Shown: positions 4,407-25,799 of the stretch, piece by piece
How the letters are laid out: each line of letters opens with the position of its first letter
Position numbering within the stretch: the first letter of the stretch is position 1
From: Candidatus Thorarchaeota archaeon
Lineage (GTDB): Archaea > Asgardarchaeota > Thorarchaeia > Thorarchaeales > Thorarchaeaceae
Assembly: GCA_048882485.1 (NCBI GenBank)
Contig: JBHLRP010000047.1
Location: 1 to 26,263 of the forward strand
Direction: 5' to 3'
Length of the DNA: 26,263 nucleotides
Program-made: the position numbers and the translations under genes
Notes under the pieces: model-generated
The model's input: only the letters and a program-made list of their open reading frames with translations
Database searches by the model: none
What the model was told of the DNA's origin: nothing

Positions 4407-6017
4407 TCAACCGAACGCCCACAAGATCGTCATGATTGCTGTGGCCAGTGTCATGAGTACAGCAACCACTGCTCCGTACTTAATGACTTCTCCTTCTATC
4501 CCAATCTCATCAATCACTGCCGCCGCGTTTTGAATCTTAGCAGGACTGAGCACACTTGCGAGGCCGCCACCAATTCCATTTGCAGCTCCCACCACCATTG
4601 AATTGGCACCAATCAAAACAGAGGTTTCGTGGTGATATCTTGTGAACATCGCTATGGAAGAGGTCTCAGATCCTGATATGAAACCAGCCAGAAGTCCCAG
4701 GAATGGTGCAAAGAGAGGATAGGCAATCCCCAATCCTGCTGTTGCTGAAGCCAGCAGATAGACCATATTGTTTGTAGGATCCAGTCCATTGACGGGGTTA
4801 GTTGGCGACAGCCAGACTCCGCCTGGTCCAACAATCCATCCGCTGAAATTCAACACCTCAGCCATCGCGAAGAAAATGGCGGCGGCTAGTACTGGTCTGG
4901 GGGCTCTCTTCATAAATTTCGAGAATGTATTTTTCATAACATGTGAATCTGATCTGAAGAATGCAATTGATACAATAGTGGATATGAGCATCAGAGTGTA
5001 CGCTTGCCAGAGAAACCGAGTGCTGATTGGTCGTGGATAGCTACCGAGGGTTATCGGGAAGCTAAACTGATTGAAAAGCAAGTCGAAGATGGGAGGTATC
5101 AGATTTGTGATGAGACTAAGAACAACTAGGATGACCCATGGAATGCTTGCTCGTTTGACACTCATACTCTGCTCTACTTGCAGGTCGGAATCATCCAGGA
5201 TCTGTCTGTTAAGCATCGGCTGTTTTCTTATTTTGGTATAGATAGCTAGAACCACGAGAACCAGTGCTCCTGCAAAGACATTGGTCAGTGTGGTCAATGG
5301 GAAGATGACATTGCATAGAATTGCCATCCCTCCTGCCGTCAGACCACAAATCGCAGCAAGAATCAATCCTTCTCTATTGAAAAGCAGCTTGCGACCGCCA
5401 GCAATCCATAGCATAGAGATAGCTATGCCCATGCTAACTACCGGCATAAAGCCTGCAAATGCAGCTCCCGACTCTTGAAGTGTAATCGGAGTGGCCCATT
5501 GAGAAAACTCCCCTCTAAAGACAACTGCAGGGACTCCAAGAAGAGCATATGTTGTAAGGGGGTCGTAGCCAATAGATGGAAGAGCAACGGCAACTAGTGG
5601 CGAGAAGCCCAAAGCAAGCATTACAGGAGGCAACATAGATACTGGAGTCGCTCCAATTCCTACTAAGAAGAGACCCAGACCAAATGAAATGGCAAGAATC
5701 TGCATTGGTCGACTCCCTCCCCCAAGTGTCTTGAAGAATACAATCAGTCTTTGAAGAGCTCCAGTTTCCTGCATCCAGGTAATCATGAGAATTGAAGTAG
5801 CCACCATCAGCGAAATGGGAAATGATTTGATAATACCCGCAAGACTTGACACAAGCGCTATGCCAAAATCCGTCTGGAAAGCGACAATCGCTATCACGAG
5901 TGTGAGAAACCAGACTACTACGCCAGTCACGTCTGCAGCCTGCTTTAGGAATAGCAGCATAATAAATGCCAGTACAATTGGGAAAAGTATCAGGATAAAG
6001 CCAATCAGCGGATCCAT
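4407..6017 (-). CDS. lctP: L-lactate/glycolate permease (LctP family)
   Basis: Highly hydrophobic 536-aa protein; LLAGFISGSETSSIAMF and GGGLASVLSPAKIQNAAA match the LctP C-terminal motifs. Confidence 0.82.
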   Translation of the reverse strand: MDPLIGFILILFPIVLAFIMLLFLKQAADVTGVVVWFLTLVIAIVAFQTDFGIALVSSLAGIIKSFPISLMVATSILMITWMQETGALQRLIVFFKTLGGGSRPMQILAISFGLGLFLVGIGATPVSMLPPVMLALGFSPLVAVALPSIGYDPLTTYALLGVPAVVFRGEFSQWATPITLQESGAAFAGFMPVVSMGIAISMLWIAGGRKLLFNREGLILAAICGLTAGGMAILCNVIFPLTTLTNVFAGALVLVVLAIYTKIRKQPMLNRQILDDSDLQVEQSMSVKRASIPWVILVVLSLITNLIPPIFDLLFNQFSFPITLGSYPRPISTRFLWQAYTLMLISTIVSIAFFRSDSHVMKNTFSKFMKRAPRPVLAAAIFFAMAEVLNFSGWIVGPGGVWLSPTNPVNGLDPTNNMVYLLASATAGLGIAYPLFAPFLGLLAGFISGSETSSIAMFTRYHHETSVLIGANSMVVGAANGIGGGLASVLSPAKIQNAAAVIDEIGIEGEVIKYGAVVAVLMTLATAIMTILWAFG

Positions 6018-7897: not shown

Positions 7898-7942
7898 TTA
7901 TATGGGACTTTTCTTCACTATTGTGAATGAAACAATAGTGAA
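7898..7942 (+). promoter_or_regulatory. TATA-like box plus inverted-repeat operator upstream of the HTH regulator-iscS pair
   Basis: TTATAT at 7898-7903, then a perfect 11-bp inverted repeat TTCACTATTGT (7914-7924) / ACAATAGTGAA (7932-7942). Confidence 0.6.
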
Positions 7943-7956
7943 TGAGGGTGAGATGG

Positions 7957-8418
7957 ATGTCACAGTCGAAACCCAAGCAGCGGAAGGTAAGGAAATGGTT
8001 AATGCCTCAAGAAGTGGAAGTCTGGTATATTCTCCCTGCAATAAGAAGAGAGCTTGCCAAGGTGATGAAGTTTGAGAGAGGACAAGCTCAGAAGACCATT
8101 GCTCGCATGCTTGGAGTGACAGAGCCTGCTGTAACCCAATATATGCTCAGCAAGAAGGACAAGCCTAAACGATCACGAGGCGATCAGGTGGACATTCCTG
8201 AGAGTCTAAAGCCGGAGCTTCTAAAGACAGCAGATAAAATGATTGAAGCTTGGAGCAAAACGAGCCCAAGCGACCCAAGTGATCACGCCTATGAAACTAC
8301 AACTAGAGAGATAAATCACCTCATTGAGGTCCTGCGAGATGATGGAGCCCTATGCGACATCCACAGAGAGCACTGTGAAGGTGTCCATATGGACTGCAAT
8401 GCTTGCAATACGGAGTAA
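7957..8418 (+). CDS. Archaeal HTH transcriptional regulator (COG2522-like) with C-terminal Cys/His metal site
   Basis: PQEVEVWYILPAIRRELA, QKTIARMLGVTEPAVTQY HTH, C-terminal CDIH...C...H..CxxC. ATG 7957 follows GAGGGTGA. Confidence 0.85.
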   Translation: MSQSKPKQRKVRKWLMPQEVEVWYILPAIRRELAKVMKFERGQAQKTIARMLGVTEPAVTQYMLSKKDKPKRSRGDQVDIPESLKPELLKTADKMIEAWSKTSPSDPSDHAYETTTREINHLIEVLRDDGALCDIHREHCEGVHMDCNACNTE

Positions 8419-8425
8419 GATAGGT

Positions 8426-9637
8426 GTGGCCTATTTTGACAACGCTAATTCTACTCAGGTAGATGAACGCGTGATTGAAGCAATGCTCCCCTATTTCAGG
8501 GAGTATTATGGAACAGCCGGCCTTGAACTCAGTCATTCGAGGGATGTCGCAGCACTTACTGGACTCGAGAACGCAAGGAAGATAGTAGCAGACTCGCTCA
8601 ATGCAGATCCAAGAGCGATAGTGTTTACTTCAGGCTCTACGGAGTCAAACAATCTCGCAATTCGAGGGACTGCAATTGCCAATAAGAAGAGGGGCAAACA
8701 CATCATAACAACGCCTATCGAGCACCAGTCAGTGATGGAATCCTGCCAGAGGCTTTCCAATGCAGGGTATGACATCTCTTATCTCAGTGTTGATAAATAT
8801 GGACTCATAGATATTAATGAGCTTCTAAGCACGATTAGAAATGACACTCAGCTAATATCTGTTCAACATGCAAACGGAGAGATTGGAACTCTGCAGCCTA
8901 TCGACGAGATAGCAAAGATAGCTGCAGAGAAAGACATTATGTTTCACACTGATGCAACTCATACCTTTCTCAAAGTGCCCATTGATACAGAAACCAATCC
9001 TGTCAATCTTATCACACTCGACGGACATCACATTCATGCGCCAATGGGAATTGGCGCGTTGTTCATCAGGAGAAAGACTCGAATCACCAGAGTGATGGAA
9101 GGTGGTGATGAGGAACGCCGCCTTAGACCTGGGGTGGAGAATATTCCAGCAGCGGTAGGACTAGGAAAAGCCATTGAGGTTTGGGGTGAAAATGACAACG
9201 AGTACCTTCTATCGCTCCGTCAGCATATGGAAGAGAGAATTTCAGAGAGCCTGACTGGTTTCAAGATAACAGGGCATCCGGCAAGTCGAGTTCCACACAT
9301 ATTCAGCATGGTCATTGAGATGATAGAAGGCGAAGCCATGCTTGTTCATCTTGATATGGAGGGATTCGCTGTTTCCACAGGATCTGCCTGCTCATCAAAG
9401 ACATTGACTGGCAGCCACGTGCTTAAGGCAATAGGACTTCCTCCTGAGATATCGCATGGTTCATTGAGAGCATCCTTCTCAAGGTTCAACACTAAGGAGG
9501 AGATTTACGACTTCGTTGAAGCCCTTGTACCAGTTGTTGAACGGCTAAGGGAGTTCAGCCCACTCAGAACTGGAGGGTATTTTGCAGACGCTGAGGAGAA
9601 TGACCATCACCATGATGTACCAGAGGATGACTGGTGA
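8426..9637 (+). CDS. iscS: IscS/NifS cysteine desulfurase homolog with the PLP lysine replaced by His
   Basis: YFDNANST, FTSGSTESNN, EHQSV, NGEIGTLQP, HTDA, STGSACSS (catalytic Cys), HGSLRASF. GTG at 8426 follows the regulator stop at 8418. Confidence 0.9.
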   Translation: MAYFDNANSTQVDERVIEAMLPYFREYYGTAGLELSHSRDVAALTGLENARKIVADSLNADPRAIVFTSGSTESNNLAIRGTAIANKKRGKHIITTPIEHQSVMESCQRLSNAGYDISYLSVDKYGLIDINELLSTIRNDTQLISVQHANGEIGTLQPIDEIAKIAAEKDIMFHTDATHTFLKVPIDTETNPVNLITLDGHHIHAPMGIGALFIRRKTRITRVMEGGDEERRLRPGVENIPAAVGLGKAIEVWGENDNEYLLSLRQHMEERISESLTGFKITGHPASRVPHIFSMVIEMIEGEAMLVHLDMEGFAVSTGSACSSKTLTGSHVLKAIGLPPEISHGSLRASFSRFNTKEEIYDFVEALVPVVERLREFSPLRTGGYFADAEENDHHHDVPEDDW

Positions 9638-9779: not shown

Positions 9780-10043
9780 TTGTCAGAAAAGAAACGAAGA
9801 ATAGCACAAATAGTGAGAGATGTCATCTACGGTATGGCATTTCATGGCATGGCAAGATATGCTCTAAAGACACGGATGTACCTTGAAAACCTGTTTATGA
9901 TTTTAACACACGGTGATATGCTAGGTATACCGATTCTTCCTCCCTATTATTCATTAAAGCTCCTGCCTTATGCGGTTCCTAATATCAGAAATTGGCAGCG
10001 ATCACTGTTCAAGGAACGTGACTTCACAGACGCGCTATATTGA
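9780..10043 (+). CDS. Small CstA/ArsA-associated protein, paralog of 15058..15345
   Basis: TTG start after GGTGAGG; 60/71 residues identical to 15058..15345 over the core. Confidence 0.88.
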   Translation: MSEKKRRIAQIVRDVIYGMAFHGMARYALKTRMYLENLFMILTHGDMLGIPILPPYYSLKLLPYAVPNIRNWQRSLFKERDFTDALY

Positions 10044-11400: not shown

Positions 11401-12327
11401 CTAGGTTCTTATTCCCAGATTCACTTTGTTTATGGCATCGAGGCATGTAAAGATGAAGTCATTAGTCGGAGTGGAAATGTGAAATTCACGACCTAGACGC
11501 ACCACTGCTCCGTTTAGGATATCAATTTCAATTCTCCTCTTATTCATCAGGTCGCGATACATGGAGGGTCTTATGTCAGGATTAAGACCGAGTGAGAAAT
11601 TCATTAGTTTATCCAGAACATCATCAGACAATGAAACACCCTTTTCTCTGGCAATCTGAATTATCTCATTCATTGTGCTCTCATACAGATGCCTTGTTCC
11701 TTCAAAATCTAATATTGGCCCCACAGGTAATCCTGTCAAGCTACAGAGACCTCCAACTGCACAAATGAATGCGAATTTCTCCCACTCCTCAGAAACGATA
11801 TTCTCTGATAGGCTTGCATTTATTCCGGCTTTTTGGAATACTTCAAGAAGAAGCTTCCCTCGACCAGATTTCCTCCCATCTATCTCACCAAAGGCAAGCC
11901 TTTCTAGTCCTTCATGATGGATTATCCCAGGAGCTTCAATGTAAGCGCTCAAAGCGCATAGACCGCCCATGATATTTGCAACACCAAAAATGCGGCCAAG
12001 TGTTTCCTCCTTCTCTACACCATTCTGCAATGATATGACGATAGTGTCTTTTGTCACTAATGGTTTAATCCGATTAGCAGCTTCTATTGTGTCGTAGCCC
12101 TTGACACAGAAGAGGAGCAGATCAACTGGATCAATCTCTGAGGGATTATCAGTCGCTACAGGTTGAACTGTGAAATCACCCTTTGGACTCCGAATCTGTA
12201 ACCCGTTCTTCTTGATTGCCTGAAGATGCTCTCCTCTAGCAATGAAAACAACATCTTCACCAGATTTAGCCAGCAATCCTCCGAAATAGCCACCAACGCC
12301 GCCTGCACCCATAATAGCAATTCGCAA
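11401..12327 (-). CDS. panE: 2-dehydropantoate 2-reductase (ketopantoate reductase)
   Basis: IMGAGGVGGYFG, CVKGYD, SLQNG, WEKF, PSMYRD, IEIDILNG. Likely TTG start at 12327. Confidence 0.92.
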   Translation of the reverse strand: MRIAIMGAGGVGGYFGGLLAKSGEDVVFIARGEHLQAIKKNGLQIRSPKGDFTVQPVATDNPSEIDPVDLLLFCVKGYDTIEAANRIKPLVTKDTIVISLQNGVEKEETLGRIFGVANIMGGLCALSAYIEAPGIIHHEGLERLAFGEIDGRKSGRGKLLLEVFQKAGINASLSENIVSEEWEKFAFICAVGGLCSLTGLPVGPILDFEGTRHLYESTMNEIIQIAREKGVSLSDDVLDKLMNFSLGLNPDIRPSMYRDLMNKRRIEIDILNGAVVRLGREFHISTPTNDFIFTCLDAINKVNLGIRT

Positions 12328-12465
12328 TTGACAGATCAACCCCAGCAGTGAGTTGATGGATTAGAGGACCTCACTCTCTTAAGTATGCTTAACAGAAACA
12401 CATCGGTTTCTCGTCTAGTTGAATTGCAATGGAAAATCCTTGTTTCTCAACAAGGAGTATCTTTC

Positions 12466-12825
12466 CTACGGCATCACATGTCGCTCAGATGAAATGAATG
12501 CATCAATCATTCGGCAAGAAGGACAACCGTAGCTTTGGTACTCAGTACCTGCGAGAGCACCTACCATCATCTTCTCTAAAGCTAATACAAAGCCTGATTT
12601 CTCATTTAGAGTCAGATCGTAGCCAGAGCTCTTGGAAATCTTGCTTAATTCTGATACCTGCTTGAAGAAGGCGTCATTACTCATCGAGAACATGAAATGA
12701 AAAACATTAGCGTTCTTCACATGATCCCGAAGGTGAACGACTGCATAGCCATCAGTAGTATCATGCTTCTCGCGATACCGTATATCAATACTCAGGATAT
12801 CCTCAGGTCCAACCATAATTCCCAT
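12466..12825 (-). CDS. Hypothetical protein with C-terminal CxxC
   Basis: ATG at 12825 after AAGGTG; GCPSC near the C-terminus; fills the intergenic gap. Confidence 0.6.
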   Translation of the reverse strand: MGIMVGPEDILSIDIRYREKHDTTDGYAVVHLRDHVKNANVFHFMFSMSNDAFFKQVSELSKISKSSGYDLTLNEKSGFVLALEKMMVGALAGTEYQSYGCPSCRMIDAFISSERHVMP

Positions 12826-12987
12826 TTTAAGACACACCTTTTTTCCAAAGTTGGCATAGTGAATATTGCTTTAAAAGTTAACTATAGTGATATATTCTAG
12901 GCGAAACCGCATATCATGAGATTCACTATATCCCAAATTGCGTGTCTTTTCCTATTCAATGCGGAGCCAGAACGATCCACTGATTGG

Positions 12988-13998
12988 TTATTCAGGATTG
13001 AAAGTTAGCATGTCCTGACAGAACCTCTCAATGCCCTCCACACCTGCCACTTCAGAGGGGTATAGAGGCACATATGCGTTGACCATATCTCCGAGCTGCT
13101 CGCTAATCATATCCATATATCTAGTCTGCTGAAGATAGCTGTTCTTCATGTAATCAGTCGCATCTTCATCAGCGGCCTTTTTCGGAATGATTCTATTTAC
13201 AAACACTCCTCCTACCGGTATATCGAAAGCTTGCACCATCTTGATGAACCGTTGCACAACAGCAATTGGAAGCGCTAGCGGAATCGTCACAAATACGAAT
13301 GCAGTCCTCTCAACATCACTAAGTATCTCTTTTGCCCGCTGATTCTTCTGGTGTTGACGCAAGAGGTCGCCCAGCATGGGATCACTCTTCACCTCTTCCG
13401 CAATCTTATCCTTTCTGAAAGAGAGCTGCACTCGAAGGGATAGAGCCTCCTTTCTGCTTTCAATCATACGACTGAGCCAAAGGTCGTAGATTTTACTGAG
13501 ACCAAGTAGCCGAATAGCATTAGCCACTGCGGCGCAGTCAAAGACAACCACATCATATTGATCGCCTTGTTCAAGCATAATGTCGGTCATGGTGTCAAAT
13601 TGAGCAGATTCCTCAAAAGCTGGATTTGTGACGGCAATCTCAATAAATGCCTCAGGATTCACCGGAATATCAGCCCACTTGAGAAATGAAGTGATACGTT
13701 CTGTGAGCTGGTTTCGATATGTCGCCATCTTCTGTGTGATATCAACCTCAACACCCCACAAGTTCTCCGCTCCTTCAATCTTTCGGATGCCGCGTCCCCA
13801 GATGTCTTGACCATATAGAGTAGATAGTGAATGCACTGGATTCAAAGACGCAAGGAGCGTCTTTTTCCCCTTAGAAACAAAGTACTGGGCAATCGCCGCT
13901 GCACTAACAGTCTTTCCTACGCCACCTTTGCCACCGGTAAAGAAGAACTTGATATTCGGATGTTGCTTCACAAATTCCTCCCACTTTGATTCAGCCAT
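12988..13998 (-). CDS. ArsA/Get3 (TRC40) family ATPase, degenerate copy
   Basis: GGKGGVGKT deviant Walker A; SLNPVHSLS (Switch I, D->N); DCAAVANAIR (Switch II variant); VFVNR. Confidence 0.9.
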   Translation of the reverse strand: MAESKWEEFVKQHPNIKFFFTGGKGGVGKTVSAAAIAQYFVSKGKKTLLASLNPVHSLSTLYGQDIWGRGIRKIEGAENLWGVEVDITQKMATYRNQLTERITSFLKWADIPVNPEAFIEIAVTNPAFEESAQFDTMTDIMLEQGDQYDVVVFDCAAVANAIRLLGLSKIYDLWLSRMIESRKEALSLRVQLSFRKDKIAEEVKSDPMLGDLLRQHQKNQRAKEILSDVERTAFVFVTIPLALPIAVVQRFIKMVQAFDIPVGGVFVNRIIPKKAADEDATDYMKNSYLQQTRYMDMISEQLGDMVNAYVPLYPSEVAGVEGIERFCQDMLTFNPE

Positions 13999-14002
13999 TC
14001 TT

Positions 14003-15010
14003 CTAATCCTCCGTTATCTTTCCGTCCCAATTCATCATCACATCAGCGACTTTGCCAATCATCTCGAGTCCCTTTGGCTCTCTATCAAACATCGGGATTA
14101 CTGCGCACACACGCTTGCCTAGTTTCTCTTTGATCTCAACCATATACTTCTGCTGCATTTCGATGCGCTCACGAAGAAACTGACTCAGATCATCCCGCTT
14201 AAGCAGCTCTTTTGGATACACTTGATTGATAATGACGCCAGTTAGTGTGATGTCCATTTGCTCAAACATTTTCAACGCACGTTCGGTATCTAGAATTGAC
14301 ATCTTTTCAGGAGTGACAACCATATAGAACGCGGTTTTTTTGGCATCAGTAAGAATATCCTGGAAGAAGCTTAGCTTCTTCCGAATCTCTATTAATTCAG
14401 CAAGCATCTCGTCTTGCCCGGCGGCAGAAGTTCTTTGTTGCATCTGCCAAGCTGACTCGCCATATTCTTGCGCTTTCTTTCGCGTTTCTTCCATCTTCTC
14501 TACCCAGATATCTAGTATTCGAGCCATTGATACAATTCGAATGCCATGACCAAAAGGGGGCATATCAAAGACATGAAAACTATATTCATCAGAGGCGAGC
14601 AATCCAGCCATCGCATCATAAGTGGCGGATTCGTGCATAGCTGGCTCAGCCCCTGCCGCATTTATGTATTCATCAATCTCCTTGGGAATCTCATCAATGC
14701 CATACATGTCCTTGATTTGCTGTCGAATCTCTTCCTGAAAGGCGGCTATACGCTTGTCTGCGTCAATTTCCATTACGTGCAAATTCTCGGCTAGAGTAAC
14801 AGAACCCTTTCCAAAAACATCTTTCTCAAAAATGTCAGATAATGATGCTTGGGGGTCTGTACTAAAGCAAAGGATTCGTTGTCTCTTCTTTGCAAGCCAA
14901 GACGCCAATGCGGCACTGCATGTGGTTTTGCCCAAACCTCCCTTTCCAGCAAAGACCGCGATCTTTAGGTCCGGATTAGATTCGAAGAAGCTACTCATCT
15001 TTGTGGCCAA
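14003..15010 (-). CDS. ArsA/Get3 (TRC40) family ATPase, near-canonical copy
   Basis: AGKGGLGKTT, STDPQASLSD, MEIDA, DMPPFGHGIR, VVTPEKMSILDTER, IINQ; TTG start. Confidence 0.92.
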   Translation of the reverse strand: MATKMSSFFESNPDLKIAVFAGKGGLGKTTCSAALASWLAKKRQRILCFSTDPQASLSDIFEKDVFGKGSVTLAENLHVMEIDADKRIAAFQEEIRQQIKDMYGIDEIPKEIDEYINAAGAEPAMHESATYDAMAGLLASDEYSFHVFDMPPFGHGIRIVSMARILDIWVEKMEETRKKAQEYGESAWQMQQRTSAAGQDEMLAELIEIRKKLSFFQDILTDAKKTAFYMVVTPEKMSILDTERALKMFEQMDITLTGVIINQVYPKELLKRDDLSQFLRERIEMQQKYMVEIKEKLGKRVCAVIPMFDREPKGLEMIGKVADVMMNWDGKITED

Positions 15011-15057
15011 TACGATTCACCAAATTGGATATATAGCAGAGATAATGAATCACCCGA

Positions 15058-15345
15058 TCAAAAGAGAGCGTCCGTGAAGTCACGTTCTTTGAACAGGGTT
15101 CGCTTCCAGGTCTTAATATTCGGCACAGCATATGGCAGAAGCTTAAGTGAGTAGTATGGAGGAAGGATGGGAATGCCTAGCATGTCGCCTAGTGTAATGA
15201 GCATGAAAAGCTGCTCTAGGTACATTCGTGTCTTCAAGGCATACCTAGCCATACCTTGCATCGCCATACCATAGAAGAAGTCCTTCACGGCGCCTTTTGC
15301 GCCGCGACCCTGTTCAGATTCCTCGACATCCTTATCGGCGTTCAT
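15058..15345 (-). CDS. Small CstA/ArsA-associated protein (type B)
   Basis: GDMLGIPILPPYYSLKLLPY...W.R.LFKERD motif shared with the other three paralogs. Confidence 0.88.
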   Translation of the reverse strand: MNADKDVEESEQGRGAKGAVKDFFYGMAMQGMARYALKTRMYLEQLFMLITLGDMLGIPILPPYYSLKLLPYAVPNIKTWKRTLFKERDFTDALF

Positions 15346-15410
15346 ATCTCAATCCCCTTCGTTGGCAATAGGAAACCTGCTATAACTCTTTTCATCAGGT
15401 GGGGGCTTAT

Positions 15411-15671
15411 TCAATCATCCATGCAAAGGATGACGTCCTGTTCTCTTAAAAGTCGTCTCTTCCAGGGAGCCATCTGTTCAAGCATGTGCACAAAGAGCAG
15501 CCTAGAATAGAAAGTCGATTGAAATGGATAGCCCAGGAGCTCGCCGAAGATTACAACCATCGTGGCATCATCGATGTGAACCTTGGCTTTAATTAGTGGA
15601 TTAGCAAGACTGGCCTTTTGCGATTGCCAGACTCCTTCCAAGAAGTCTCTAATAGCCCTGATGACTTGCAT
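15411..15671 (-). CDS. Small CstA/ArsA-associated protein (type A)
   Basis: FGELLGYPFQSTFYSR.LF...PWKRRLLREQD; ATG after AGGAGA. Confidence 0.85.
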   Translation of the reverse strand: MQVIRAIRDFLEGVWQSQKASLANPLIKAKVHIDDATMVVIFGELLGYPFQSTFYSRLLFVHMLEQMAPWKRRLLREQDVILCMDD

Positions 15672-15794
15672 ATGACAGTCTCCTATGGTATTCGAGCTTG
15701 TTATTGCATTAGCGCAAATTAGTGTTATGGACTATCCCTATTTCAATTGAAGCGAGAAATCCTCAGGCGCCTCAGGACTGCGCCCATGTGAAAT

Positions 15795-16055
15795 CTACAT
15801 ATCAGTGAAGTCTTTTTCCTTTAGTATTCGCTTCCGCCATGGATCAATCTTGTTCAACCAGTAGATGAATAATTTTCTAGAATAGAAAGTTGACTGAAAT
15901 GGGTATCCCAAGAAATCGCCAAAGATTGTCACAATCATTGCATCATTGTGATATGTAGTAGCTTTGATGAGTGGGCGCGCAAGGTTCTCCTTTTGAGCTG
16001 CCCAGACTCCGTCCCAGAACTCTTTGAGCTTCCTGAAAGCACGCAAGTGATCCAC
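15795..16055 (-). CDS. Small CstA/ArsA-associated protein (type A)
   Basis: FGDFLGYPFQSTFYSRKLF...PWRKRILKEKD. The true start may be TTG at 16046, after GGTGG. Confidence 0.85.
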   Translation of the reverse strand: MDHLRAFRKLKEFWDGVWAAQKENLARPLIKATTYHNDAMIVTIFGDFLGYPFQSTFYSRKLFIYWLNKIDPWRKRILKEKDFTDM

Positions 16056-16110
16056 CTGGTAGCTCTGTTATCATATATTGCAGATTAGTATTATGACTTG
16101 TACTTTTTGC

Positions 16111-16144
16111 AAAAATAAAAAGAAGAAGTAGCCTTTCGGCTACT
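16111..16144 (-). terminator. Hairpin plus U-tract, terminator-like, immediately after cstA
   Basis: Minus strand: AGTAGCC-GAAA-GGCTACT followed by TCTTCTTTTTATTTTT, starting 5 nt after the cstA stop. Confidence 0.7.
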
Positions 16145-16149
16145 CTATT

Positions 16150-17931
16150 CTACTGTACTGGAGTCGATACTTCCACTGATACATCAGCTTGCTCAGGACC
16201 GCGTCTAAGTGCAGCCCAGGCGTCGGCAAAGACGAGCCATCCAAGGAAGAACAATACTATTGCGATGCCGAGGAAAGTCCAAGTCAATGCGATTGCTGGC
16301 AACGCATTGCCTCCTTGTGCTAAAACGTCTATTAGACTACCAGCTTGGGCATAATAGCCTGTGGCGCTCAGGAGGGCTTGGATGAACACCCAAGCTTCCC
16401 ATACGAGTGCCGCCTCACATGTGAAGATCATGAAGATGGCGGGAATCAGCGTATAGTATGTAGGTCTGTTAGCACGGACCAGATACACCGACGCAAGCAT
16501 GAGAGCAAGTCCTGCAAGCAGTTGGTTGCTGCCACCGAACAATAGCCATATGTGATACCAGGCGCCAGTAGCCGCGAAGATGAACGCAATTAGAACTCCG
16601 ATGAATGCTCCAATCCACTTATTTCGGAACAGAGGAGCAATCGCAGATTGCCCAGCGAGATCAGCTGCAGCCAAACGGAAGAACCGAGGCATGAGCTGCA
16701 ACACTGTAATTGCGTAGAGCTCTAGAACCATAGCAAAGAACGCAACTAAAACGATGCCGGATACAGCAGCACCACCAAACATACCTTGTGTGAGAATCGC
16801 TGCACCAGTCGGGAAGTTGGCGAACCATGCTCCTACCCTTTGTGCCTCTGGAATGACAACATATGCTGACATGGCACACATTGCAAGGACTCCTTCTAGG
16901 AACATAGAGCCACCAGCAACAGGAAGAGCATCGACCTCAGATGCGATTTGCTTTCCAGTTGCACTGCTTCCTACTAGGCTATGCCAGCCAGAAACAGCAC
17001 CACAGGCAATTGCCACGAAAAGAATTGGCCAAATAGGTCCATTTGCCTCTGTAAACAGAGTGATCACTGGATCTATCTGAACCGCGACTGGTTCTGACAC
17101 TGTCTGTGTAAGTGGACTAAGCAGAGCTCCGGCAATGATGAGTAGCACCGCTACAAAACATGGCCAGAAAGCAACGTAGTTTACTGGTTGCGCCCAGTCT
17201 GTTATTGCTAATGTAGCACCAAAGTACACAAGTACCAGGGACAGTATAATCCACCATTCTACCGGAGTATCGGCAACCCAAGCCAAAAGACCCTCTACAT
17301 AGAGCCAAATGCCCAAAACGATGCCGACAACCATGAACAGCATGCCTACAATAGTGGAGATTACAATGTTCATCTTTCTTCTATACATCATGATTCCAGC
17401 AAATGCTCCTCCAGCAATCACGAAAATTGTCGGAAGGATACTCTGTGGGAATGCTCTAAAGAACGCTCCACAGATATATGCGAAGACAGCCATCACTAGA
17501 ATCAGATAGAAGATGATGAAGCCCATCAAACCTTTGCGGGCTCGGGATCCTACCATCCGATAGGCAATCGGACCAAAGGATTCTCCCTCACTGCGCACTG
17601 TTATCATGACCGATGTGTAATCATGAATCCAACCAATGAAGAATGTGCCAAATACTATCCAAAGGAATGCTGGCAACCAACCAAATACTAATGCTATAAA
17701 CGGACCGCTAATGGGACCGAGAGCTGCAATCGATTTGAATTGGAAACCGAACAATACACTCTTTGAGGTGGGGAAGAACTCAACACCATCCATGTACATG
17801 TGCGCAGGTGTTTTTACTTTTGCATCAGGGCTCCAAACATTGCGATCTACGTATCTGGCGTATAGCCAATAGCCAAATATATAGATTACAAGTCCGACCC
17901 CGATAAATATTGCAGGTGAAAGTGTTTGCAT
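16150..17931 (-). CDS. cstA: Carbon starvation protein A (CstA) family transporter
   Basis: TPAH..DG..F.P, SIA..GPISGP, GWLPA.LWI..G..F.G..HDY, WPILFVAIACGAVSGWHSL, W.LFGGSNQLLAGLAL; strong GGAGGTGG RBS. Confidence 0.95.
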   Translation of the reverse strand: MQTLSPAIFIGVGLVIYIFGYWLYARYVDRNVWSPDAKVKTPAHMYMDGVEFFPTSKSVLFGFQFKSIAALGPISGPFIALVFGWLPAFLWIVFGTFFIGWIHDYTSVMITVRSEGESFGPIAYRMVGSRARKGLMGFIIFYLILVMAVFAYICGAFFRAFPQSILPTIFVIAGGAFAGIMMYRRKMNIVISTIVGMLFMVVGIVLGIWLYVEGLLAWVADTPVEWWIILSLVLVYFGATLAITDWAQPVNYVAFWPCFVAVLLIIAGALLSPLTQTVSEPVAVQIDPVITLFTEANGPIWPILFVAIACGAVSGWHSLVGSSATGKQIASEVDALPVAGGSMFLEGVLAMCAMSAYVVIPEAQRVGAWFANFPTGAAILTQGMFGGAAVSGIVLVAFFAMVLELYAITVLQLMPRFFRLAAADLAGQSAIAPLFRNKWIGAFIGVLIAFIFAATGAWYHIWLLFGGSNQLLAGLALMLASVYLVRANRPTYYTLIPAIFMIFTCEAALVWEAWVFIQALLSATGYYAQAGSLIDVLAQGGNALPAIALTWTFLGIAIVLFFLGWLVFADAWAALRRGPEQADVSVEVSTPVQ

Positions 17932-18064
17932 ACCTAACCACCTCCAAGGCCGAAACCCTCTCTCTCCTCGGGGATTCTCGGTCTCGGTTGCAAACGATTA
18001 GCATTGGTCCCCATTAAATACTTCGTTTTCAATTGTTTTCCTGTCTCTTCAGGATACTATATGT

Positions 18065-18685
18065 CTATAGAAGGTCATCTTCGTACGATTCTATGTCGTG
18101 TCCATGACACAAAAGAGAGTTCAATGAAGAAATCAGCACATTGGACTCTTCAATAATCAGCTCAGGAATAGGAGAATTCCAAATGACCTTTATGAGTCGA
18201 GAAGTTTCGTCACATGGGACATAGCCTATCAGTTGCGCACTAAGACGTGGGGACCCAAAGAATCCGAAGCGAGGACGCATGGCAGTCCAGAGAATATAGC
18301 TGCCAACATGATCTCCACTATGCAATTCACCATGTTCCACTACTTCTCGACCTTTGTTGAAGTGTTGTTCAAGAAGTGTTTCCGGGCTCGGTGCAATTGG
18401 CGTGTCCTTCTTCAATTCCACGACAATCTTGGCTCTGAAATCAAGGTCAGGACGCTTCTCTGTGCCATGTCTTCGTGAAATAAGGCATTCAATTTCTCCG
18501 GAACCAACCCATACACGGTCCTTGTAAAGGAATCTATTGGTGACCAGTGGGTCATTCATTTGATATCCGGTCACCCAAGAAGCAGGTAGAAAGAGAAAGG
18601 CAAAAATGGCACGACCAAAAAGCATGTTCCAGGCTTCGACACAAACCTCGCGCATGTCATCTACCTGCTCGTCTGTTTTCATCAC
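18065..18685 (-). CDS. Hypothetical soluble protein with H...C..T.R...CH pattern, upstream of cstA
   Basis: 206-aa ORF co-oriented with cstA; GDHVG, VPCDETSR, LLCHGH. Start uncertain. Confidence 0.7.
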   Translation of the reverse strand: MMKTDEQVDDMREVCVEAWNMLFGRAIFAFLFLPASWVTGYQMNDPLVTNRFLYKDRVWVGSGEIECLISRRHGTEKRPDLDFRAKIVVELKKDTPIAPSPETLLEQHFNKGREVVEHGELHSGDHVGSYILWTAMRPRFGFFGSPRLSAQLIGYVPCDETSRLIKVIWNSPIPELIIEESNVLISSLNSLLCHGHDIESYEDDLL

Positions 18686-18791
18686 AATTCAACTGCCAAT
18701 TTCTCAGAGGGGGGCTAATATATCGATTTTGATTCACAAAGTCTTAAAGGGAGGAACAGAAACAGACATTATTTATTCCCCCAAACGCTGA

Positions 18792-19487
18792 TTGGAGTAC
18801 GAACTCTTGCAGAACTTGGCTGAACAAGGCTATTTGGCCCTCTTTGGTGTGGCAATCTTCTTGATTGGGACGTGGATGATAGGACGTTGGAAAACATCAC
18901 AACTACGCAGTAGGATTTCACAGAATGTGGCAAATCGATTTGAAGCAACGACTTCCAAGGTGAGTGTCAGACTTCTTGGAAATACAGGAGCCAAATTCTC
19001 ATATCATCAGAAATCAAATAGTCCTCTGCCAAAACTCGAATCAACTATCCTATTGCTTGACAGGTCCAATATCTTCCATCTTGCATACTGCAAAATCCGT
19101 GGCCGAACCGACCAACTCCAAATACGGGCGAACCTAGGAAGACCTGCATCATTCAATCTCGAACTCGCAACTCAGAGAGAAAAGAAGAATCTGGAGGAGG
19201 TTTTGAAGCCCAAGATGGAAGGTGCTAGCGAGCTATTGATTGACAATCTGAGTGATCAGTTCTATGTTGTAGTATCCGATCTAGAAGCCGGTGAGCGTCT
19301 CTTTGAGAAGCAGGAGTTCCATGCGGATTTCAAAGCCATCGCGCCTTTCTTAACTCGCCTGTCCATTTCCAGAAAGGAACCGCATGTGTTCGCTTCTGTG
19401 GTTCTTGTTCCAGAATCCATGGCGCCCATTGAGAATTTCATCCTTTCCTTGGCCAAATCTATCAAGCGTAGAAAGAAGTCACAATAG
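18792..19487 (+). CDS. N-terminally anchored membrane protein, possible CCDC47/DUF1682-like
   Basis: One TM (GYLALFGVAIFLIGTWMI), then IGRWKTSQL...LLLDRSNIF...RGRTDQLQIRANL; basic C-terminus. Confidence is for the CDS; the family call is tentative. Confidence 0.75.
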   Translation: MEYELLQNLAEQGYLALFGVAIFLIGTWMIGRWKTSQLRSRISQNVANRFEATTSKVSVRLLGNTGAKFSYHQKSNSPLPKLESTILLLDRSNIFHLAYCKIRGRTDQLQIRANLGRPASFNLELATQREKKNLEEVLKPKMEGASELLIDNLSDQFYVVVSDLEAGERLFEKQEFHADFKAIAPFLTRLSISRKEPHVFASVVLVPESMAPIENFILSLAKSIKRRKKSQ

Positions 19488-19700
19488 GTCCCTATTTGAA
19501 AACAGCCAGCTGAATTGCAATATCTCCTTGAGCTCTGCTTGTAATTCATAAATGATCCAAAACCACTGCTGAATTCCTGAGTCAGAGAACGTTCTTCGAT
19601 TCCGAGAAATAAAGGAACTGGGCATAACTCATGTCAACTGATTGTTGCCTGATAGTAAACAATATACGCAAATCATAGCCTCCTATTAGAGGTGCTTAAA

Positions 19701-20069
19701 GTGTACAGCGACAAGGTGATGGAGGAGTTCAAGAATCCGCAGAACATGGGCAAGATGGAGAATCCTGATGGAGTGGGAACTGTCGGGAACCCAGTCTGCG
19801 GGGACATGCTCCGTATGTATATTAAAGTCGAGGATGGAAGAATCGCTGATGCCAAAATCGAAACCTTCGGCTGCGTCGCAGCTATTGCCACATCATCAGT
19901 CACTACACAGATGGCAATAGGGATGACGCTTGAAGAAGCCAAGGAATTAACGAGGAAGGAAGTCGCTGATGCGTTGGATGGATTGCCTCCTCAGAAGATG
20001 CATTGCAGCAACCTTGCCGCTGACGCACTCCACAAAGCAATTGAAGACTATGAAAGCAAAAAATCCTAG
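19701..20069 (+). CDS. iscU: Fe-S cluster assembly scaffold IscU/NifU-N
   Basis: YSDKVM..F.NP.N.G, GNPVCGD, FGC, LPPQKMHCSNLA. GTG at 19701 follows GAGGTG. Confidence 0.96.
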   Translation: MYSDKVMEEFKNPQNMGKMENPDGVGTVGNPVCGDMLRMYIKVEDGRIADAKIETFGCVAAIATSSVTTQMAIGMTLEEAKELTRKEVADALDGLPPQKMHCSNLAADALHKAIEDYESKKS

Positions 20070-23741: not shown

Positions 23742-25799
23742 CTAGAAACCGACTAGATCTATGAACTCATCTTCGCTGAGAATTTCAATGCCAAGCTTCT
23801 TTGCCTTCTCAAGCTTTGAGCCTGCGCCAGGACCTGCTACAACGTAGATCGTATTCTTGGACACGCTTGAGGAAGTCTTCGCACCAAGACTCTCGACTAA
23901 TTCCTTTGCTTTCCTTCTATCCATTTTCTCCAAAGCCCCAGTAAATACGAACGTACTACCAGCTAGAGTCTGAGCAGCTTCTTCAAGATCTGTCTTCTTT
24001 CCTAAGCCCGCCTCAATCAAGTCCTTAACCATACTTCTCGTATCTTCATATTCAAAGTACTCTACAATACTTCTGGCAATTTCAGGCCCAATTGTATCAA
24101 GTCTTAGCAGGTCGCTTTCAGTTGCAGAAATCAGATCCCTAACAGACTCGAAGCTGTAGGCAAGAATCTTCGCTGTCTGTTCTCCAACATTTGGTATCCC
24201 AAGTGCAAAGATGAATCGGTTTAGAGGAAGGCTCTTTGAGGCTTCAATCTGTTCAAGAATCTTGAGGGCAAGACGCTCTCCAAATCGCTCCAAGCCCAAC
24301 AGGTCATCAATATTCAGTGTATAGAGAGAATGAAGACTTGTCACAATCCCAGCATCAACGAGCTGGTCTACACGTTTCGACCCAAGTCCCTCTATATCCA
24401 TGCCACTGCGAGATGCAAAATGCTTGATGCTTCTTCGTAGCTGAGCAGGACAATTGAAGTTTGGACACTGAGCCAACTTCTTATCATTGCTCATATGGAT
24501 TGGAGAGTTGCAGACAGGGCATATCAATGGCATGTCAAACACTCTTTCAGAACCATCTCTTGAGTCAAGAACTGGACGCTCAACCTGTGGTATAACATCA
24601 CCAGCTCGAACAACAATGACAGTATCGCCAATTCGGATGTCTTTACGTTCAATCTCACTCTGATTATGGAGTGATGCTCTGCTGACTGTGACTCCACCTA
24701 TGTTAACGGGATCAAGTTCAGCTACTGGTGTGAGTCGGCCAGTTCTTCCTACCTGTACGGTAATATCGAGCAGCTTGGTTGTTGCCGCCCTCGGTTTGAA
24801 TTTGTAGGCAATAGCCCATCGAGGGTCTCTAGCTCTGAAACCCATTTTTTCTTGATTCGACTTGGAGTTGACTTTGAAGACTACTCCATCTATTTCAAAG
24901 GCCAGATCATCTCTTTTGTCTTCGAGTTCACGATGATACTCTAGAAGCTCATCAAAACCTCGGCAGAGTCGAGAGAGTTCGAGCTGAGTTGGGAGACCCC
25001 ATTTCGGGAGAGATTCCAACACCTGCCATTGCGTATCAAAAGCTCGTCCTTCAGATTCCATCACGTCGTAGATGTATATCCGGAGTGGTCTGCTGGCTGT
25101 GATCTTGGGATCCAGTTGCCTTATAGACCCAGCTGCCGCGTTGCGCGGATTGGCGAAGGTTGGCTCGTCAGAAGCCTCGCGTTGGACATTCAATTTCTCA
25201 AAATCCTCAAGCCCCATATACACCTCACCACGAACTATTAGGCGAGATGGAATACCATCATCATCGTCATCCAGCAGGACAAGGGGTAGTTCCCGAATTG
25301 TCTTCACGTTCGCAGTAACATTCTCGCCGGTCTGACTATCGCCCCTGGTAGATGCAACTATCAATGACCCATTCTCATAGATTAGTTCAACCGCAAGACC
25401 GTCAAATTTGGGCTCCGCAACATACTCAATGATCCTGGCGCCCAATTCACCTTGGCATCTAGCATCGAATTTTCGAACCACAGATTCTTCATAGACTGTC
25501 TGAAGGCTAAGCATAGGAATTGCGTGTTCGATTGTCCCCAATTCTGAAAGCGGCTCTCCGCCGACCTTTTGCGTTGGCGAGTCAAAACTACTGAGCTCCG
25601 GGAATCTCTCCTCAAGAGCTATCAAATTCAATAACAGTGAATCATACTCTGAGTCATCAATCACTGGTGAATCAAGAATATAGTATCTATAATTGTGATA
25701 CCTGATTGCTTTTGATAATCTACTGATAGCATGTTTGGCCTTTTTCTTGGAGGTGATTTTGTCCACATCAATGTCAGGTTTAAGATCATCTTCTGTCAT
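23742..25799 (-). CDS. ligA: NAD-dependent DNA ligase
   Basis: YHNYRYY..D.P.I.D.EYD, EPKFDG, STRGD..GENVT, RGEVYM, FANPRNAAAGS.RQLD, IDGVVFK, PRWAIAYKF, Cys4 zinc finger, HhH, BRCT. Confidence 0.98.
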   Translation of the reverse strand: MTEDDLKPDIDVDKITSKKKAKHAISRLSKAIRYHNYRYYILDSPVIDDSEYDSLLLNLIALEERFPELSSFDSPTQKVGGEPLSELGTIEHAIPMLSLQTVYEESVVRKFDARCQGELGARIIEYVAEPKFDGLAVELIYENGSLIVASTRGDSQTGENVTANVKTIRELPLVLLDDDDDGIPSRLIVRGEVYMGLEDFEKLNVQREASDEPTFANPRNAAAGSIRQLDPKITASRPLRIYIYDVMESEGRAFDTQWQVLESLPKWGLPTQLELSRLCRGFDELLEYHRELEDKRDDLAFEIDGVVFKVNSKSNQEKMGFRARDPRWAIAYKFKPRAATTKLLDITVQVGRTGRLTPVAELDPVNIGGVTVSRASLHNQSEIERKDIRIGDTVIVVRAGDVIPQVERPVLDSRDGSERVFDMPLICPVCNSPIHMSNDKKLAQCPNFNCPAQLRRSIKHFASRSGMDIEGLGSKRVDQLVDAGIVTSLHSLYTLNIDDLLGLERFGERLALKILEQIEASKSLPLNRFIFALGIPNVGEQTAKILAYSFESVRDLISATESDLLRLDTIGPEIARSIVEYFEYEDTRSMVKDLIEAGLGKKTDLEEAAQTLAGSTFVFTGALEKMDRRKAKELVESLGAKTSSSVSKNTIYVVAGPGAGSKLEKAKKLGIEILSEDEFIDLVGF

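Follow-up and report, generated by a model that had tools for sequence, protein, structure and literature searches.

A widespread CstA-CstX-ArsA-type module of a Thorarchaeota archaeon with a predicted half-active Get3-type ATPase pair and a CCDC47-fold membrane protein

What does a CstA-family carrier do in the company of two ArsA/Get3-type ATPases, several very small proteins and a membrane-anchored protein? The question is raised by contig JBHLRP010000047.1 of a Candidatus Thorarchaeota archaeon (assembly GCA_048882485.1), of which the whole stretch of 26,263 nucleotides (nt) was analysed (hereafter the window). The original prediction, made from this DNA alone, had taken the genes to form one system with CstA, and all of its open reading frames (ORFs) were recovered in place. 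As it had described, a gene for a 206-amino-acid (aa) protein, cstA, three small genes and two ATPase genes are co-oriented on the minus strand. The ATPase genes lie exactly 4 nt apart and encode proteins 30% identical; the three small proteins (86, 86 and 95 aa) are paralogues with pairwise identities of 30-52%; and a divergent gene encodes a 231-aa protein with one N-terminal transmembrane (TM) helix. No arsB, acr3, arsC or arsR gene was found among the scanned window ORFs. Overlooked was a fourth paralogue of the small proteins, at 9780-10043 on the plus strand. A cstA-cstX-arsA-homologue system was proposed from gene context in 2010 (Castillo & Saier, Int J Microbiol 2010:187373; PMC2963123). 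The cluster is a member of this kind, and we call the small proteins, which match by size and context, CstX.

A gene-neighbourhood survey recovered the cluster in Asgard archaea, Bathyarchaeia, Wolframiiraptor and Chloroflexota with differing gene orders. Its closest loci (76-95% identity) came mostly from metagenome-assembled genomes labelled Thorarchaeota, Hermodarchaeota or Promethearchaeota, which places the window in the Asgard archaea and probably in Thorarchaeia. Even distant relatives of the 231-aa protein in Bathyarchaeia, Wolframiiraptor and Chloroflexota adjoined cstA, cstX and the ATPase pair, each in a different order and orientation. Among metagenome and assembly loci, both ATPase genes were present in 58 and cstA in 49 of these; the divergent (anchor) gene accompanied them in 39 of the 49, and the 206-aa gene in 20. 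The metagenome sample consisted of the best 80 of 588 matches by CstX and is biased to paired-ATPase systems. As an independent check, 20 Chloroflexota loci were selected only by a CstX match; cstA was present in 18, the ATPase pair in 18, the anchor gene in 13 and the 206-aa gene in 2. Over 83 module loci, the divergent gene stood beside cstA, cstX and the ATPase genes in 56, and it belongs to the module. The module is nevertheless patchy, CstX being found in 18/301 Asgard and 26/301 Chloroflexota genomes, with no CstX match in the plasmids searched. We conclude that the gene arrangement is not a product of chance, recurring as it does in distant lineages in differing orders, and co-occurrence across phyla despite rearrangement supports the view that the genes form one system with CstA.

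The two ATPases were examined next. Both match PF02374 and exceed the TIGR00345 cut-off of 135 bits, ATPase A (335 aa; 14003-15010, minus strand) with 221.6 bits and ATPase B (336 aa; 12988-13998, minus strand) with 210.9 bits, which places them in the Get3/TRC40 type. Their closest PDB entries were the archaeal TRC40 structures 3ug6 (E 1.5e-49) and 3zq6, with E. coli ArsA far behind (9.6e-21). The TRC40 insert was present as well: following switch II there are ~19 residues more than in E. coli ArsA (1f48), in a stretch that spans 34 profile positions against 15 and is colinear with archaeal TRC40. Neither subunit has the CxxC zinc clasp.

Alignment of homologues separated the ATPases into two fixed classes, with identities of 42-65% within a class and 26-34% between them. 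In class A the switch I catalytic Asp (D52) and the switch II G154 were present in 64/64 sequences and the switch II Gly-His was kept, whereas all 50 class B homologues had Asn (N53) in place of the switch I Asp and Ala (A159) in place of the switch II Gly. The switch II Asp is retained in both classes, as is the P-loop, including the signature Lys. The same Asp-to-Asn change, D57N, traps Get3 in an ATP-bound, hydrolysis-dead state (PMC12506534), and ATPase B is predicted from its residues to bind ATP without hydrolysing it.

The order CstX-A(Asp)-B(Asn) was found in 57/58 loci with both ATPases, the sole exception being a frameshift artefact, and again in 18/20 of the Chloroflexota loci picked only by CstX match. 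Since this order is fixed while cstA moves and flips, the linkage of CstX is tighter with the ATPases than with CstA. From the constant adjacency of the two genes and the two fixed classes of sequence we infer that A and B form an obligate heterodimer of Get3 type in which a single site works. A canonical Get3, with intact switch motifs and CxxC, is encoded by a separate gene on contig C74 (L010:1486-2532) and is probably the general tail-anchor chaperone of this genome; the module pair would therefore be specialised. Prediction of a complex of A, B, two ATP and the CstX copy X3 gave a median score of 0.53, with one control at 0.45, and was not used as evidence either way.

The CstX proteins fall into two types. 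The conserved type is represented by X3 (95 aa; 15058-15345, minus strand; DUF7990/PF25952), whose gene lies directly upstream of that for ATPase A, in the window as in almost every locus; 680 homologues were found, and PF25952 was carried by all 120 of the matches listed, including close homologues of the window proteins. The second type comprises X2 (86 aa; 15411-15671, minus strand), 52% identical to X1 and 30% to X3, and its duplicate X1 (86 aa; 15795-16055, minus strand), whose start may be a TTG at 16046. Two copies of the second type were found in four related loci and one copy in four others; X1 arose by a recent duplication of X2 and was seen in close relatives alone. The fourth paralogue is 76% identical to X3, lies ~5 kb from it and stands alone behind an IscS-like desulfurase gene; it is also present in three related loci (L001, L002, L008) and in same-genus genomes. 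Three tandem copies and one outlying copy are a local expansion, more distant relatives having two. The window copies match the NCBIfam family cory-CC-star weakly and below its cut-off (X2, E 5e-5). Their core is weakly hydrophobic, with Kyte-Doolittle maxima of 1.0-1.5 across the copies and 1.54 for X3. Two observations stand apart from the paired systems. Lone CstX genes occur in loci L203 and L207, contrary to the 2010 statement that CstX is never found without cstA (PMC2963123), and at L216:9680-10947 CstX is accompanied by just one ATPase, with a switch I motif that belongs to neither class; this may be a simpler form of the system with one ATPase.

We then considered the divergent protein (231 aa; 18792-19487, plus strand; likely start 18807), a single-pass membrane protein encoded by the only anchor gene of the genome. 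Its predicted model had a high confidence score (predicted local distance difference test, pLDDT, 95.6), and the three top Foldseek matches were all to CCDC47 within multipass translocon structures (7tm3_4, E 1.4e-9). The VIA aligner gave Z 16.9 and a root mean square deviation (rmsd) of 3.2 over 219 aligned residues for 7tut_4, and Z 15.2 for 9i78_4. Third by VIA was TtfA (6t84; Z 11.8, rmsd 3.5, 152 aligned, 7% identity), a TM-anchored accessory subunit of the mycobacterial MmpL3 transporter; the next row fell to Z 6.6. Structure comparison was needed to see the CCDC47 link, since PDB sequence searches with the protein or its alignment yielded only chance matches. The window protein has no PF07946 match and so stays below the gathering score of that family; 23/56 family members gave a match (best 3.3e-8).

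The match covers only the TM and globular domain of CCDC47, ending at residue 366 of 9i78_4 and residue 401 of 7tut_4. Beyond it, after the globular domain, lie segments 371-447 of 9i78_4, which contain the latch helices and the tunnel-reaching tail; with these parts CCDC47 closes Sec61 and reaches into the ribosome tunnel. The window protein ends at residue 231. Asterix, the partner of CCDC47 in the PAT complex, was not detected in this 90.5% complete genome (best PF03669 match E 0.63, with stop codons), in a search that could miss a remote homologue. On its predicted structure the 231-aa protein is a homologue of the CCDC47 core and not a PAT complex. By size, TM helix and context it is probably the CstY of 2010.

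CCDC47-like genes also occur in Asgard archaea outside the module. Pfam CCDC47 matches were found in 26/301 Asgard genomes, 13 of them above the cut-off, and most of the positive genomes belong to families without CstX in the genomes searched; five tested genomes with a stand-alone gene were without cstA too. Tail-less stand-alone copies, several above the PF07946 cut-off, occur in Jordarchaeia, Heimdallarchaeota-labelled and other Asgard genomes. In one Asgard family (f5), in whose searched genomes CstX was not found, the copies are ~300 aa long, end in a Lys/Glu-rich tail and adjoin a small-GTPase-like gene; they span PF07946 positions 8 to ~320 of 326, a span to which a charged low-complexity tail can contribute by composition alone. 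In an unrooted tree, from which eukaryotic CCDC47 was left out and which says nothing on eukaryotic ancestry, a weakly supported branch (92/52) set the stand-alone copies to one side. The window protein grouped apart from them, with module-linked sequences, in a clade of five rows (100/100), and the idea that its gene is their direct orthologue was set aside.

The carrier itself (593 aa; 16150-17931, minus strand; PF02554, E 9.5e-100) is encoded by a single-copy gene, has 13 hydropathy peaks and is 28% identical to E. coli CstA. Against the E. coli-type pyruvate symporter equivalog NF011590 it reached 142.6 bits vs a cut-off of 1188, and a sequence search found no solved CstA structure. The remaining member, the apparently soluble 206-aa protein (18065-18685, minus strand), is predicted to have a PsbP/Mog1 fold (model pLDDT 84.8; VIA match to PsbP 2xb3, Z 11.7, rmsd 3.4, 143 aligned). 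A His, two Cys and a further His, in this order, are invariant in 23/23 homologues and suggest a metal site. This single-copy gene is present in 23/83 module loci, and we regard its product as an optional subunit. The fold family includes the Eag/SciW TM-domain chaperones, at a Z of 7.6 that is within the common-fold range and too low to lean on. The fold search did not confirm the feature matches of this protein to fungal clusters and to HSDR_N.

How, then, might these parts act on CstA? The original prediction had left it that the ATPases and small proteins either energise or gate the carrier or chaperone its insertion. Of these two candidate mechanisms, the chaperone or assembly side has gained weight from the Get3 insert, the predicted dead second site and the CCDC47 fold. 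In the reading we favour, to which we give a probability of roughly 45%, the module would be an ATP-driven accessory apparatus dedicated to a single CstA carrier and would act as a Get3-type clamp, not as the motor of a pump. The two ATPases would pair as an obligate heterodimer in which both subunits bind ATP and close; only A would hydrolyse, so that one site times the cycle, and B would hold its ATP as in the Get3 D57N trap. The closed dimer, gripping the hydrophobic hairpin of CstX in its Get3-type groove, would bring CstX to CstA at the membrane or strip it off, with the CCDC47-fold protein as membrane dock or scaffold and the PsbP/Mog1-fold protein as an optional soluble cofactor. CstA itself would go on carrying a small organic acid or peptide by ion coupling and, by analogy with E. 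coli CstA, which requires the small protein YbdD for pyruvate uptake (PMC5847655), would need CstX as its small subunit. The ATPase would thus assemble or switch the carrier according to ATP supply. A clamp is favoured because the ATPases carry the Get3 insert, because CstX is more closely linked to them than to cstA and because E. coli CstA needs YbdD.

Several points weigh against this reading. The CstX core is less hydrophobic than a typical Get3 client helix, and hhalign found no similarity between CstX and E. coli YbdD (probability 0.7%). The anchor and 206-aa genes, present in 56/83 and 23/83 loci, are missing from the others, in part through contig ends, and may not be core. The roles proposed for all members draw on sequence, context and predicted folds, a shared fold does not show function, and a motor with CstX as its coupling element would have the same parts.

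Such a motor is the proposal of Castillo & Saier, in which CstX couples ATP hydrolysis to CstA and energises the carrier (PMC2963123). As a primary active importer, the CstX-bound A/B pair would turn CstA into an ATP-driven pump much as ArsA does for ArsB, and the dead site would resemble the degenerate site of asymmetric ABC transporters. The strict linkage to cstA (18/20 Chloroflexota loci), the tree co-evolution of CstA, CstX and ArsA (PMC2963123) and the ArsAB precedent within the same ATPase family, where A and B would mimic two-domain ArsA, all suit it. It leaves the CCDC47-fold subunit without a role, however, and has to accommodate ATPases that carry a client-binding insert missing from ArsA and are far closer to TRC40, as well as a characterised E. 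coli CstA that works with no such ATPase beside it. We consider it the main competitor of the clamp, if somewhat improbable.

A third possibility is a private insertion or folding chaperone for CstA, in which the CCDC47-like protein would sit at SecY and the ribosome like the PAT complex, CstX would replace Asterix and the Get3-like pair would escort the CstA helices. The CCDC47 fold, the Get3-type ATPases, the size of CstA as a large multipass protein and the presence of Eag/SciW chaperones in the fold family of the 206-aa protein are consistent with this. Yet the CCDC47 match stops short of the tail and latch helices, the search of the genome for Asterix gave no match, the SciW score is that of a common fold and most CstA proteins insert without such helpers. 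We rate it as unlikely. Least probable by far is a split ArsA for arsenite efflux with cstA as a mere neighbour: split single-domain ArsA pairs are known to work with Acr3 (PMC2963123) and an intact Acr3-type gene lies outside the window on contig C13 (L016:1312-2421), but conserved Cys are missing (no column above 40% in 64 A or 50 B sequences, and none in the metalloid region of the C113, C172, C422 type), the ArsA equivalog TIGR04291 gives 93 and 98 bits vs a cut-off of 650, and the cstA/cstX linkage survives rearrangement across domains with no ars genes found in loci with called genes. A second Acr3-type gene, on contig C15, is broken into two frames and lies beside an ArsR-like ORF.

A broader reading would make the module a prokaryotic single-client machine for membrane-protein assembly and activation, with a half-dead Get3 heterodimer and a CCDC47-fold anchor acting jointly on a carrier. 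The anchor family would also have given rise to the stand-alone Asgard copies, some of them tailed, as candidate ancestors of the PAT subunit CCDC47. Taken as a whole this reading is doubtful. The CCDC47 fold in the module points to a transporter-accessory origin for that fold, and its occurrence in archaea and bacteria qualifies the statement that prokaryotes lack PAT components (PMC9630114). Both possible outcomes would be of interest, be it a carrier of the CstA family driven by ATP or a transporter assembled or switched by a Get3-type clamp.

Other features of the window lie in and around the module. A hairpin followed by a T-run directly 3' of cstA (16126-16145, minus strand), seen by pattern scan only, is a possible terminator that would divide the cluster into two transcripts. 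An IscS/NifS-type desulfurase gene (8324-9637, plus strand), whose start is overlapped by a helix-turn-helix-like ORF (7942-8418), and an IscU/NifU scaffold gene (19692-20069, plus strand) flank the module ~10 kb apart. In close Asgard relatives the ATPase genes are followed by panE/apbA (here 11401-12339, minus strand) and the gene for a 123-aa CxxC protein (12466-12837, minus strand). PanE also adjoins the module in five Chloroflexota loci; overall it is near the module in only 7/83 loci, which does not suffice to argue for a keto-acid substrate. A protein of ~125-145 aa, often with CxxC and without a Pfam family (L064:11334-11702), has homologues in 43/83 module loci, its gene being at most 600 nt from the module in 48/49 matches; it was not found in this genome. 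Farther out are an L-lactate permease family gene (4407-6017, minus strand), a second organic-acid carrier in the window, and a gene for LigA (23742-25799, minus strand), an NAD-dependent DNA ligase of bacterial type in an archaeal genome.

Finally, we compared the module with known systems. Like the ArsAB and ArsA-Acr3 arsenite pumps, it associates an ArsA-family ATPase with a secondary carrier; it differs in having the Get3 insert and in lacking metalloid Cys and ars gene context. TtfA resembles the anchor protein in fold, but at 7% identity, with an unrelated transporter and without an ATPase pair. E. coli CstA-YbdD likewise combines a CstA carrier with a small adjacent protein; that carrier is only 28% identical, CstX is unlike YbdD and no ATPase gene lies beside cstA-ybdD. 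With Get3/TRC40 (3ug6, 3zq6 and yeast Get3) the ATPases share a TIGR00345 score above cut-off, an intact deviant Walker A and the TRC40 insert. Known Get3, however, is a homodimer with two intact sites (STDPAH, DTAPTGH) and a CxxC clasp, whereas here two unlike subunits, B with its Asp-to-Asn change and altered switch II, are tied to one transporter. CCDC47 of the PAT complex and multipass translocon (PF07946) superposes on the anchor over 219 residues, through its N-terminal TM helix and globular domain; the window protein is in contrast only 231 aa long, without latch helices or ribosome-tunnel tail, is encoded by a transporter-linked gene and has no detected Asterix partner.

The closest likeness is to the clusters of Castillo & Saier, who listed 26 instances in which cstA is accompanied by a single-domain arsA homologue (PMC2963123). 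A ~90-aa CstX was present in 24 of them and a ~210-aa single-TM CstY in five archaea; two organisms had ArsA genes in adjacent pairs (25% and 31% identical), and in two CstX was duplicated. Their single-domain ArsA homologues lack the metalloid cysteines, and the switch I Asp can be Asn (PMC2963123). The window shares with these clusters cstA with a single-domain ~330-aa ArsA homologue in a cluster without ars genes, 86-95-aa DUF7990 proteins in the CstX position, an adjacent ArsA pair ~30% identical (their cluster 15), a single-TM protein of ~210-230 aa (probably the CstY of their cluster 14) and duplicated CstX. The original prediction had called the expanded form undescribed; paired ArsAs, duplicated CstX and a CstY-like gene had in fact been reported (PMC2963123), and what stands of the claim is that four CstX copies are present here and that the ATPase pair and the CstY-like gene occur together. 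A literature search, thin on subscription papers, found no experimental follow-up of the CstA-CstX-ArsA link, and nothing on cory-CC-star, on CCDC47 or the PAT complex in Asgard, or on Get3 or ArsA with carbon starvation in archaea. The core cstA-cstX-arsA association is thus already known, published in 2010, and the module occurs widely, so that this genome is no special case. An active/dead pair, a CCDC47 fold and a His/Cys PsbP-fold gene went unrecognised by Castillo & Saier. New relative to the papers found are the fixed, predicted active/dead Get3-type pair, the CCDC47-fold subunit, the PsbP/Mog1-fold His/Cys protein and the fourth CstX; because it is now clear which subunit should be active and which dead, and which proteins are candidates for client or adaptor and for dock, the link proposed in 2010 becomes directly testable.

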